Origin: an uncultured Lentisphaerota bacterium
Lineage (GTDB): Bacteria > Verrucomicrobiota > Kiritimatiellia > CAIQIC01
NCBI GenBank assembly: GCA_903889245.1
Contig: CAISWQ010000079.1
Coordinates: 876 to 64,875, forward strand
Length of the DNA stretch: 64,000 bases
Reading direction: 5' to 3'
Part shown: piece by piece, positions 16,826 to 18,063 of the stretch
Numbering within the stretch: position 1 is the first letter of the stretch
How the letters are laid out: each line of letters starts with the position of its first letter
Notes under the pieces: generated by a model
Seen by the model: only the letters and a program-made list of their open reading frames with translations
Told to the model about the DNA's origin: nothing
Database searches by the model: none
Position numbers and translations under genes: made by a program

Positions 16826-17029
16826 GGTGTGGTGCTCCGGCGGTGACCATCGCCGCCGCATATTAAACGACCGTTAGCCGCCCGCTAGCTTTTTGTGAAC
16901 GGTTGCCAAGCTCCTGAAAACCGCGGTTGAAAAGGGTGGCGCGGGCTTCCAGCCCGCCCAACGCGGCCTCTGGCCGCGTTGTCCTCGCTCAAAAGAAGCC
17001 CGGCCTGCGCCCCCTGAAGTGAAAACTCA

Positions 17030-17150
17030 AGCGCGGTTTCCAAGCCTTGGAAAAAACTCCGCGCCATTTTCCAAGCCCTGGAAAAGTTGCCCGCGAAACT
17101 GTCCAATGCCTGGAAAAACGCCGCCCCGGTTTTCCAGTCCTTGGACAGCG
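17030..17150. repeat. Palindrome cluster e: 4 copies with centres at 17045, 17076, 17108 and 17139
   Basis: ggtttccaagccttggaaaaa / ttttccaagccctggaaaag / ctgtccaatgcctggaaaaa / gttttccagtccttggacag. About 200 bp upstream of the response-regulator start. Confidence 0.85.
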
Positions 17151-17225
17151 CCCCGGCCAGCCCCGCCCGTCTGATGCTGTGTTGATGGAGGGCGAGGCTC
17201 GCCGGGCTGGACCCTTCCATGTCCC

Positions 17226-17298
17226 GTGGGCAGGCGCTCCAACTCCCGCGCAAGCGAACCACAGCCCGACGACCGCGGGAGCTGTAGCCCCCGCCCAC
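17226..17298. repeat. Nested inverted repeat GTGGGCrGGmGCTmCArCTCCCGCG ... CGCGGGAGCTGTAGCCCCCGCCCAC, 25-bp arms with a 23-nt loop
   Basis: Arms at 17226-17250 and 17274-17298. Each arm itself contains a near-palindrome, CGGGAGCT..AGCTCCCG. Confidence 0.8.
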
Positions 17299-17544
17299 AA
17301 GCCTTCTGCGGTGCCCATGATACCTAGAACTACTAGGTATCGGCTCCGGCGGCCGCGAGTGGAGGGGCCGGCCGTGTTCTGACGAGCGCGGCTACCTATG
17401 GGCCGGTGTTCCGCACTCCCCCGCCGGCTGCGCCCCCTGCTGGGTTGCCCGGCAGGGGAGCAGTACTGGGGCTCGACCCGCGCGCCAGTTCCAAAACTTC
17501 CGCATCGGCGGGGCAAGCCGGGGGCGCAGCGCGATACCTAGTAG

Positions 17545-17700
17545 TTCTAGGTATCGATGCCGGCGGCGGCGCGGGCGGGCCGCGTTCTGGCGAGCGCAGC
17601 TACGAAAACGTTCTCCGGCCTTCGACATTCAATATTCCTTGTTCAACATTCTGCGGTTTTTTGCCGCGCTCTGACGAGCGCAGCTACCTGCTTCGCTTCG
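17545..17700 (+). repeat. Composite repeat element, copy 1: terminal 23-bp stem-loop palindrome GATACCTAGTAGTTCTAGGTATC plus an internal duplicated CGTTCTGRCGAGCGCAGCTAC box and an SD-ATG-like module on the opposite strand
   Basis: Near-identical to reverse-complement copies at 22860-22990 and 23720-23860. A truncated copy lies at 17320-17400. Confidence 0.8.
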
Positions 17701-17814
17701 ATATTCATTTCAACCCGCATCTATCGTCCTCGCATCCTGCATCGCCCCCCCCTCGCCCGCCTCGCGGCGGGGCTACAAACGGCGTCGTTGTCGGCGCAGG
17801 TGGAACCGCGCCCT

Positions 17815-17865
17815 CCATGGCCAGGTTCGATGTTGGATGTTCGATGTTCGGTGTTCGATGTTCGC
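17815..17865. repeat. Degenerate heptamer microsatellite (GTTCGAT / GTTGGAT / GTTCGGT) of about 6 units
   Basis: ggttcgatgttggatgttcgatgttcggtgttcgatgttcgctg. Confidence 0.6.
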
Positions 17866-17992
17866 TGCATCCCGCCGCCTTCTCCCTCGCATCCCGCATC
17901 ATGTCTCGCCCGCCTTGCGGCGGGGCTACCAACGACACAGCTTCAGAACAGCGCCGTTGGTAGCGCGCCCGCAAGGGCGCCTCCCGTCGCGG

Positions 17993-18023
17993 CCAAATAT
18001 TTTTGAAGATTCCGGTCGCGGCC
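17993..18023 (+). promoter_or_regulatory. Candidate sigma-70-type promoter upstream of the ECF sigma gene (TTGAAG, 19 nt, TATAAT)
   Basis: ttgaag at 17993-17998 and tataat at 18018-18023, about 40 nt before ATG 18064. The spacer is 2 nt longer than optimal. Confidence 0.3.
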
Positions 18024-18063
18024 GCCGTATAATGCGCGGAGACCATCAGATCGAGGGTCGGAC

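Follow-up and report, generated by a model that had tools for sequence, protein, structure and literature searches.

The stretch of DNA analysed here (the window; 64,000 nucleotides of a contig from an uncultured Lentisphaerota bacterium, GC ~67%) carries an OmpR-type response regulator gene (16136-16825, minus strand), with a histidine kinase gene next after it, and, divergent from these, a gene for an extracytoplasmic function (ECF) sigma factor (18064-18612, plus strand), which is followed by an anti-sigma gene of 1372 codons with zf-HC2, PATR and VWA domains (18624-22742, plus strand). Named homologues of the sigma factor come from metagenome-assembled genomes of Kiritimatiellia/Kiritimatiellota. 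The gap between the regulator and sigma genes (16826-18063, 1238 bp) is the widest intergenic gap of the window, and since the two genes are divergent no gene end falls in it. A preliminary description of the DNA had set its left border at 16862; the regulator ATG, on the minus strand, is at 16825, and the gap starts at 16826. The same description took the gap for a gene-free, repeat-only island that was either a recombination or insertion hotspot or a complex regulatory leader of the sigma operon, and "not a spacer". Our analysis suggests, with a probability of roughly 80%, that the island is a mosaic cluster of repetitive extragenic palindromic (REP) sequences, REP doublets forming hairpins (REPINs) and other dispersed intergenic repeats, similar to the bacterial interspersed mosaic elements (BIMEs), and neither a regulatory leader nor a phase-variation locus. 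In the plain sense of the word it is a spacer after all, an intergenic spacer that has been expanded.

Repeat modules of the island

The modules were resolved by comparing the island with the window, by alignments and by searches of related contigs (those with L numbers were compared with the window, several of them coming from Joint Genome Institute (JGI) metagenomes). They cover nearly the whole gap, 17151-17221 being the only stretch left without a family assignment. At the regulator start codon lies a conserved block (16826-16902, minus strand) which, unlike the rest of the spacer, aligns to L004 and L007 and presumably holds the promoter and 5' untranslated region (UTR) of the regulator gene. 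It is followed by a degenerate single A-type palindrome (TTGCCAAGCTCCTGAAAA; 16903-16920), corresponding in position to the first perfect A palindrome of L007 and to a degenerate one of L004, and by module E (16934-16982; DNA fold z = -5.7), two adjoining hairpins which on the minus strand read GTTGGGCGGGCTGGAAGCCCGC, a single REP of B' type. Module A (17022-17150; fold z = -5.9) consists of four TTTTCCAAGSCTTGGAAAA palindrome units with a period of 31-32 nt and cores at 17038-17052, 17069-17083, 17101-17115 and 17132-17146. Module B (17222-17302) is a degenerate copy of a REPIN-type inverted doublet of the GTGG-headed REP GTGGGCGGGAGCTNNAGCTCCCGCG, the arms of its nested GTGGGC.GG inverted repeat lying at 17226-17250 and 17274-17298.

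The middle of the island is occupied by module C', a truncated copy of C (17319-17395, plus strand; fold z = -3.0) with the GATACCTAGAACTACTAGGTATC palindrome and a GC hairpin with terminal CTAC, by module F (17427-17530; fold z = -2.5), a hairpin of ~100 nt with 15-nt terminal arms, and by a full copy of C (17528-17700, plus strand). The latter is a composite of ~175 nt in which a 23-nt palindrome (17533-17555; 9+5+9, GATACCTAG-N5-CTAGGTATC) precedes a GC hairpin with CTAC (17579-17603), a TTCNNNN core (17604-17662) and a second GC hairpin with CTAC (17663-17687), the hairpin stems being 9 bp long. It is 80-82% identical to two reverse-complement copies at 22858-22986 and 23692-23865, which brings C to four copies including the truncated one. 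From 17697 to 18010 follow two tandem H-D units of ~157 nt. H1 (17697-17751, plus strand) is a degenerate 7-nt-periodic tract with a C8 run (17745-17752) at its end and is a direct repeat of 17854-17900 at 157-nt spacing; D1 (17752-17821), recognized from repeat comparisons, is a degenerate copy of a GTAG-tagged REP doublet. H2 (17825-17904, plus strand), found as a tandem-repeat match, is a GTTCGAT heptamer array (17825-17864) with a CATCC-rich, 7-nt-periodic tail, and D2 (17905-17990; fold z = -3.1) is a tail-to-tail doublet of GTAG-tagged REPs, CGCCCGCCTTGCGGCGGGGCTAC ... GTAGCGCGCCCGCAAGGGCGCC, with the inverted repeat GGGGCTACCAACG...CGTTGGTAGC (arms 17913-17934 and 17955-17976, 20-nt spacer). 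The gap closes with the conserved promoter and 5' UTR of the sigma gene (17995-18063, plus strand). When folded as single strands most modules beat shuffled controls; the C core does not (z = +0.3).

The four-copy palindrome array, the nested inverted repeat, the truncated and full stem-loop elements and the poly-C8 tract of the preliminary description were all found at or near the places it gave them. The GTTCGAT microsatellite that it listed is likewise present, but is not free-standing: the array (5.7 copies, 87% matches, imperfect) is the best-kept part of the longer H2.

None of this DNA is coding, and the gene-free, almost entirely repetitive nature of the island was confirmed. No Pfam domain was found in six island open reading frames (ORFs), and public gene calls for the same contig place no gene in 16826-18063. 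Third-position GC is 0.60-0.71 in seven examined island ORFs versus 0.83-0.92 in neighbouring genes, and second-position GC 0.60-0.73 versus 0.38-0.52. The longest island ORF (185 aa), searched exhaustively among 1.84 billion representative proteins, gave a single marginal match of 28 residues that falls in heptamer read-through. Together with the absence of the island in relatives, these results rule out a protein-coding gene. Three of the C copies share an apparent N-terminal peptide (MSQ/K..GERFR..RYLELLGI), but the differences between them show no third-codon-position bias, which identifies C as a DNA repeat rather than a gene. Rfam likewise returned no family in the island at the gathering score, nor at E values up to 10; a hammerhead-like reading of CTGACGAG was dropped, this motif having no Rfam match and being the loop of a 9-bp GC hairpin. 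The 1.2 kb are best annotated as repeat DNA and the ORFs inside as read-throughs.

A second cluster 3' of the sigma operon (22749-23263) holds, in mirror order, a heptad tract, D and C (both as reverse complements), B and two A units, its B copy sharing 96% identity with B at the same place in L007. The idea that a single large inverted duplication surrounds the operon, as in a composite transposon, was rejected, since B is in direct orientation and only C and D are inverted, identity between copies is no higher than 75-83%, and in L007 the operon keeps its position but does not have these flanks. Besides this cluster, similar mosaics are present in L088, in L118 and at 63234-63409 of the window. 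The last of these comprises a B' singlet together with a B doublet and two further hairpins, and is found in a second divergent intergenic gap.

Dispersed repeat families and a REPIN-associated transposase of relatives

Modules B and D and the hairpins of C have the hallmarks of REPs and REPINs, being short (20-40 bp) imperfect palindromes capable of stem-loop formation, with a GT[AG]G end, that occur extragenically in many copies and, for B and D, as inverted doublets. GTGG is a variant of the REP head tetranucleotide. B arms are 25 nt long with an inner 7+2+7 palindrome and D arms 22-23 nt, and the D and C hairpins end in (G)CTAC, which is GTAG on the opposite strand. Among aligned B copies GTGG is invariant, the arms are conserved and the loops variable, and arm variants keep the inner palindrome by paired changes (GGGAGCT/AGCTCCC, GGGAGTT/AACTCCC, GGGGCT/AGCCCC). 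Two more B copies lie at 23018-23098 and 63301-63371 of the window, in which every copy of these REP modules falls between genes. When JGI metagenomes were scanned for exact matches to a B-arm pattern, 106 stretches were recovered, more than 60 of them from one sample, and in these and the related contigs 247 heads were counted, with 64 inverted doublets (modal length 73 nt) and 119 singlets. Perfect hairpins (stem of at least 7 bp) are eight times as dense in intergenic as in coding DNA (5.3 versus 0.68 per kb), and GTGG is the commonest tetranucleotide flanking them.

A tblastn search with a RayT query detected, in related contigs, a 170-aa protein that Pfam assigns to Y1_Tnp, that carries the HUH motif PDHLHLV and whose relatives are annotated by JGI as "REP element-mobilizing transposase RayT". 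The gene for this REP-associated tyrosine transposase (RAYT) has B doublets on both sides in L097 and L165, with arms identical to those of the window B copy at 63301-63371; L165 was recovered from the metagenome that also yielded L004, a sister genome (95% sigma identity). All four RAYT genes (L097 780-1292; L147 1057-1569; L163 6001-6513; L165 476-988) follow purM, and in L163 and L165 queG lies on the far side, as expected of a vertically inherited RAYT. Judged by sequence, B may be classed as a REPIN with a dedicated RAYT in its lineage. No RAYT linked to the D or C hairpins was found in the contigs examined. The last codons of the RAYT gene (TGGTTTCAAGGCTTGGAAGGATGA in L097) resemble the A palindrome. 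In L163, where REPs of the B kind flank the gene as well, it is followed by a REPIN (6555-6700) and then by a copy of its own first ~60 nt, which indicates that the upstream REPIN was duplicated together with the gene start. L163 stems from the same study as the window, but with its variant B arms and scarcity of A sites, which are almost absent, it probably represents another organism, and it was not taken as the window's own RAYT locus.

REPIN/RAYT systems have been described in Pseudomonas and Enterobacteria (PMC3116915), GTAG-tagged REPs with head-to-head or tail-to-tail dimers and clusters are known in bacteria of the Planctomycetes-Verrucomicrobia-Chlamydiae (PVC) group including Opitutus terrae (PMC3733652), and REPs are stated to lie often in composite BIMEs with regular spacing and alternating orientation (PMC2817692). 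The architecture of a GTAG tag plus a palindrome, which D and the C hairpins have, is described for REPs of many phyla (PMC3733652). Such systems, dimers and clusters are already known, also from PVC bacteria (PMC3733652; PMC2817692; PMC3116915), and the present case adds a little-studied lineage. As in known REPIN/RAYT systems, the palindromes are 20-26 nt long with a GTGG or GTAG end, occur as singlets and as inverted doublets with 20-25-nt spacers, are extragenic and of high copy number, and a RAYT lies between the same doublets at one chromosomal place (purM-queG, in related contigs). Unlike in those systems, the host is Kiritimatiellia-like, the REP sequences are new, the RAYT is from related populations and the island mixes REPs with the tagless families A, F and H. 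As in the BIMEs of Escherichia coli and the Neisseria intergenic mosaic elements (NIMEs), several palindromes of either orientation form, together with other conserved short motifs, a composite extragenic block. NIMEs are mosaic clusters of REP-type palindromes with linker motifs. The island has REPs in both orientations and recurring linkers (H by D, and A at the outer edge), though not in a regular pattern: unlike in BIMEs, two REP types do not alternate in a fixed manner with set linkers between them, the families involved are unrelated and number at least six, and 1.2 kb is large. Our data document a REPIN/RAYT system and its companion repeat families in Kiritimatiellia-like bacteria.

The most unusual component of the island is the A array. 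In the window the A 17-mer has 53 matches with up to three mismatches (none in shuffles), and arrays of two to five TTTTCCAAGSCTTGGAAAA units occupy 12 of about 20 sizeable gaps, which amounts to about one site per 1.7 kb (5490, 7533-7608, 11022-11067, 13287-13332, 17038-17146, 23215-23261, 24671-24779, 32102-32146, 33021-33067, 40894-41003, 44555-44600 and 50054-50162). The window and related contigs, 628 kb in all, hold 110 arrays of two to five units, with 193 of the 198 unit-to-unit spacings being 31 or 32 nt. Each unit combines a 19-bp palindrome of perfect symmetry with a variable GC-rich spacer of 12-13 nt, and the position profile of 306 units is fully symmetric (a T-run, CCAAG S CTTGG and an A-run), with neither tag nor orientation. 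Symmetric units without a tag are not GTAG- or CGTC-tagged REPs, and spacers of only 12-13 nt, the low number of units and the 110 arrays in 628 kb do not agree with a clustered regularly interspaced short palindromic repeat (CRISPR) array. CRISPR arrays are long and number one or a few, their 23-47-nt repeats alternate with unique spacers of about equal length, and cas genes usually accompany them. A function as intrinsic terminator is also unsupported: on both strands the T-run is 5' and the A-run 3' of the hairpin, which leaves no U-tail. At orthologous sites with ~90% flanking identity the unit number differs (4 versus 3, 4 versus 1), or B arms are present instead.

Dispersed minisatellites of other bacteria include the clustered 35-bp REPs of Pseudomonas putida, the mycobacterial interspersed repetitive units (MIRUs) and the cyanobacterial short tandemly repeated repetitive (STRR) heptamers. 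A resembles them as tandem arrays of two to five units at many intergenic sites, and H, a dispersed heptamer repeat, resembles STRR; A differs from them in its perfectly symmetric palindrome plus short spacer, its strict 31/32-nt period and the lack of a tag, an orientation and small ORFs. A full-text literature search for the A palindrome sequence returned no relevant paper, and the abundance of these arrays merits a study of its own. Several A arrays begin 2-26 nt past a stop codon. Between 31 and 51 kb the only clear canonical intrinsic terminator (42076-42094, minus strand) is at a gene 3' end in a gap without an A array, and no clear canonical terminator was seen there in gaps with A arrays.

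Related JGI contigs contain further copies of D, E, F, H and the C core; module copies, whether in the window or in related contigs, occur in both orientations and almost always between genes. A further D copy lies at 22789-22855 of the window, and nine related contigs carry copies of D2 type. E is present at the orthologous place in L004 and in four more copies in related contigs, one of them 98% identical. F copies were seen in six related contigs and, in L010 and L011, 3' of the anti-sigma gene, an H2-type element follows the anti-sigma stop codon in reverse complement in L010, L011 and L012 and occurs in 15 related contigs, and the C core was found in L058, L095 and L155. The C core and H (17604-17662, 17697-17904, 22749-22790; L010 14800-14900; L118 8240-8310) are both 7-nt-periodic, with (TTCNNNN)n on one strand opposite (NNNNGAA)n or a GGATG-rich sequence, and in the GAA/GGATG orientation they often stand directly after stop codons.

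The palindrome of C resembles a PadR-type operator. Its half-sites are identical to those of palindromes beside padR genes in Nocardia, Verrucomicrobiota and Anaerolineae genomes (loci including L041, L044 and L051), and at 14 out of 44 genomic loci, spread over several phyla, GATACCTAG-N5-CTAGGTATC is an immediate neighbour of a padR gene, which it flanks on either side in L014, L030 and L047. The genes beside the 30 such palindromes without an adjacent padR gene show no clear pattern. In the window the PadR-type palindromes (17319-17341, 17533-17555, 22964-22986 and 23837-23859) all lie on C copies within 6.5 kb around the sigma operon. Unlike known PadR operators, which adjoin padR genes and bind the PadR dimer, these candidate operators sit on a multi-copy repeat, far from promoters and with no padR gene nearby. 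The reverse-complement C copy at 23692-23865 also supplies AGGA-N8-ATG, and gene callers start a DUF6794 lipoprotein gene (ORF 23764-24588) inside the repeat, although the Pfam match of this ORF begins only at residue 66. The true start of the gene is probably downstream of 23865, the C copy having given it a false start codon at 23764.

The sigma promoter and the spacer in relatives

Alignment of seven sigma orthologues, one of them at only 60% protein identity, leaves T-TGAAG ... CGTAT-A-G as the invariant positions upstream of the ATG. The motif, TGAAG(A/C)-N16-CGTAT, is present in the window as TGAAGA at 18004-18009 and CGTAT at 18026-18030, is preceded by an AT-rich tract and is followed by a conserved 30-nt leader with GAGG. 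ECF promoters typically combine a -35 element of GAAC or TGAAxC type with a 16-17-nt spacer and a -10 element containing CGT, as in the TGAAAC-N16-CGTA of Bacillus subtilis sigma-W. The interval 17995-18063 has the features of an ECF-type autoregulated promoter, and the motif suggests autoregulation of the sigma operon. The TATAAT box noted ahead of the sigma ATG by the preliminary description does exist (18028-18033, 30-36 nt ahead of the ATG at 18064) but overlaps the better-conserved CGTAT and probably belongs, as its tail, to the ECF -10 element. A promoter scan found no sigma-70-type match at standard spacing, and a TTGAAG/TATAAT reading would need a 19-nt spacer. The island lies wholly upstream of this promoter, and models of sigma regulation may treat the last 70 nt as the working promoter and ignore the island unless experiments say otherwise.

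Comparison with relatives, as proposed in the preliminary description, showed that both the length of the spacer and its module content vary. In genomes with the regulator and kinase genes upstream of sigma it measures 1238 bp (window), 645 bp (L004) and 196 bp (L007 and L009, of the same 90% sigma cluster). In L010, of that same cluster, and in L011, with the same sigma protein as L010, a nitroreductase gene is upstream instead, with spacers of 554 and 316 bp, respectively, and in L005 (87% sigma identity) a 92-aa ORF beside a cellulase gene, with a spacer of 200 bp. Besides the regulator-side and sigma promoter blocks, the L007 spacer contains just two A palindromes. That of L004 has E, one D and H fragments in common with the window, some modules being in another order, lacks the A array, B, C and F, and carries a different hairpin. 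The only conserved parts are ~75 nt by the regulator gene and ~70 nt by the sigma gene. Since E is common to the window and L004, the three sizes suggest a stepwise gain of spacer DNA, although the three states alone do not decide between gain here and loss in L007.

The genes downstream of sigma are kept in all compared relatives while the upstream gene varies (regulator/kinase, nitroreductase, cellulase), which makes the left border of the sigma operon a synteny breakpoint. With the extra DNA consisting of dispersed repeats, these comparisons support the reading of the region as an insertion and rearrangement hotspot, one of the two proposals made for it at the outset. They also indicate that the repeats turn over fast between close relatives.

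Proposed origin of the island and competing explanations

In the established REPIN/RAYT model the transposase recognizes and cuts folded single-stranded REP hairpins, whose copies land extragenically, and we infer that the REP-type hairpins of the island were copied in this way. The other repeat families would also have spread, and local tandem duplication may then have enlarged the cluster, as in the 157-nt H-D unit (two copies) and the 31-nt A unit (four copies). A divergent promoter spacer would tolerate such insertions as long as the core promoter blocks at both edges stay intact, and the compact ECF-type promoter of the last 70 nt would drive the sigma operon without the island taking part. 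A secondary role of the island, with hairpins blocking read-through, a wider distance between the divergent promoters or binding sites, is possible.

Several points weigh against this account. No RAYT or IS200 gene was found in the 64-kb window, a weak negative from a tblastn search with two query sequences, and the link to a RAYT comes from related populations. B alone is tied to a transposase, A, the C core, F and H having no known mobilizing enzyme, and the repeat copies are old (75-83% identity) with no recent movement seen. The compact L007 spacer already has two A palindromes directly beside the sigma -35 element, where they may conceivably play some role, and in other genomes the palindrome found in C looks like a PadR-type operator. 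Finally, the interior of the island (~16985-17910) is backed only by scaffold-level assemblies from one study.

The last point touches on the very unlikely case that the island is partly an artefact, in which the assembler joined repeats from different loci. The modules are multi-copy, and the short-read Logan contigs L002 and L003 of the sigma operon stop exactly in repeats, at 17911 (inside D2) and 23053 (B loop), which shows that repeats of this type break short-read assemblies. The metagenome scaffold BUCK21-1 scaffold_41 (ENA), from another sample, nevertheless matches the window at 99.995% identity across 20.5 kb, island included, with one base differing; contigs from several further samples have the same gene neighbourhood, two Logan runs independently confirm the sequence from 17911 onward, and L004 independently shows an intermediate, partly common mosaic at the same place. 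Equally hard to credit is a long structured RNA, whether as the regulator operon's 5' leader on the minus strand or in the form of one or several small RNAs. Most modules do fold well above shuffled controls, the minus-strand order H, D, C, B, A is the plus-strand order 3' of the anti-sigma gene, and, so oriented, H and the C core come after stop codons at other loci. The failure of even the most permissive Rfam search, a C core that folds no better than shuffled sequence and the lack of the whole segment in close relatives speak against it, and conserved arms with variable loops fit REPIN biology at the DNA level. Nor did the complex regulatory leader proposed earlier, or a riboswitch, find support, either of which would be transcribed between promoter and start codon and be conserved among orthologues: the island is located 5' of the promoter, outside the leader of the transcript; L007 and L009, which have the same promoter and 5' UTR, lack it; in L004, L005, L010 and L011 it differs; and it matches no RNA family. 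Least credible of all is a contingency locus in which gain and loss of heptamer units switches sigma expression, as the suggestion of phase variation implied. Phase-variable simple-sequence repeats have perfect tandem units, located in an ORF or between promoter elements, and their unit number varies within a population. A tandem array of 5.7 units does lie 5' of a regulatory gene, but its units are imperfect; it is in no ORF and its end is ~140 nt 5' of the -35 element; the dispersed element of which it is one copy also occurs past stop codons; and both assemblies that cover the array have equal numbers of units.

More weight is due to explanations that give the repeats a function, though we consider them unlikely as well. 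The island could be a regulatory region in which proteins bound to the repeats control the two divergent promoters or insulate them, with the phased A palindromes and the two PadR-like palindromes (17319 and 17533) as candidate sites. The frequent position of GATACCTAG-N5-CTAGGTATC beside padR genes, a similar palindrome 164 nt 5' of the padR gene of L004, the strict A period of about three helical turns and the A palindromes abutting the -35 element in L007 favour such sites. Yet both C palindromes are ~500 nt from either start codon and are absent in the L004 and L007 spacers, which keep the same promoters; they are parts of a four-copy element (one copy truncated) whose full copies are ~80% identical; no padR gene was found in the window; and A arrays stand in most gaps whatever the neighbouring genes, with unit numbers that vary between orthologous sites. 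A broader proposal, tentative and improbable to us, is that A arrays are phased sites for an abundant DNA- or RNA-binding protein, serving as terminators or insulators and thus as genome punctuation, while C spreads PadR-type operators and rewires a PadR regulon that includes the neighbourhood of the ECF sigma gene. Its first half draws on the symmetric 19-bp palindromes, the 31/32-bp period, the presence in most gaps, the starts just past stop codons and the gaps without canonical terminators. A BIME-like cluster of dispersed repeats remains in our view the best description of the island.

Elsewhere in the window, GGAA-rich 8-nt repeats (24798-24820) stand just 5' of a PDDEXK_3 (GxxExxY-type) gene, and 3' of this gene an 80-nt element with the internal inverted repeat ggaaagcaggaagg...cctttcctgctttc occurs twice (25228-25306 and 25378-25457). 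Two ORFs are very large, one of 2183 aa (25547-32098), with no Pfam match on record, and one of 3797 aa (50311-61704), with an unusually low first-position GC.

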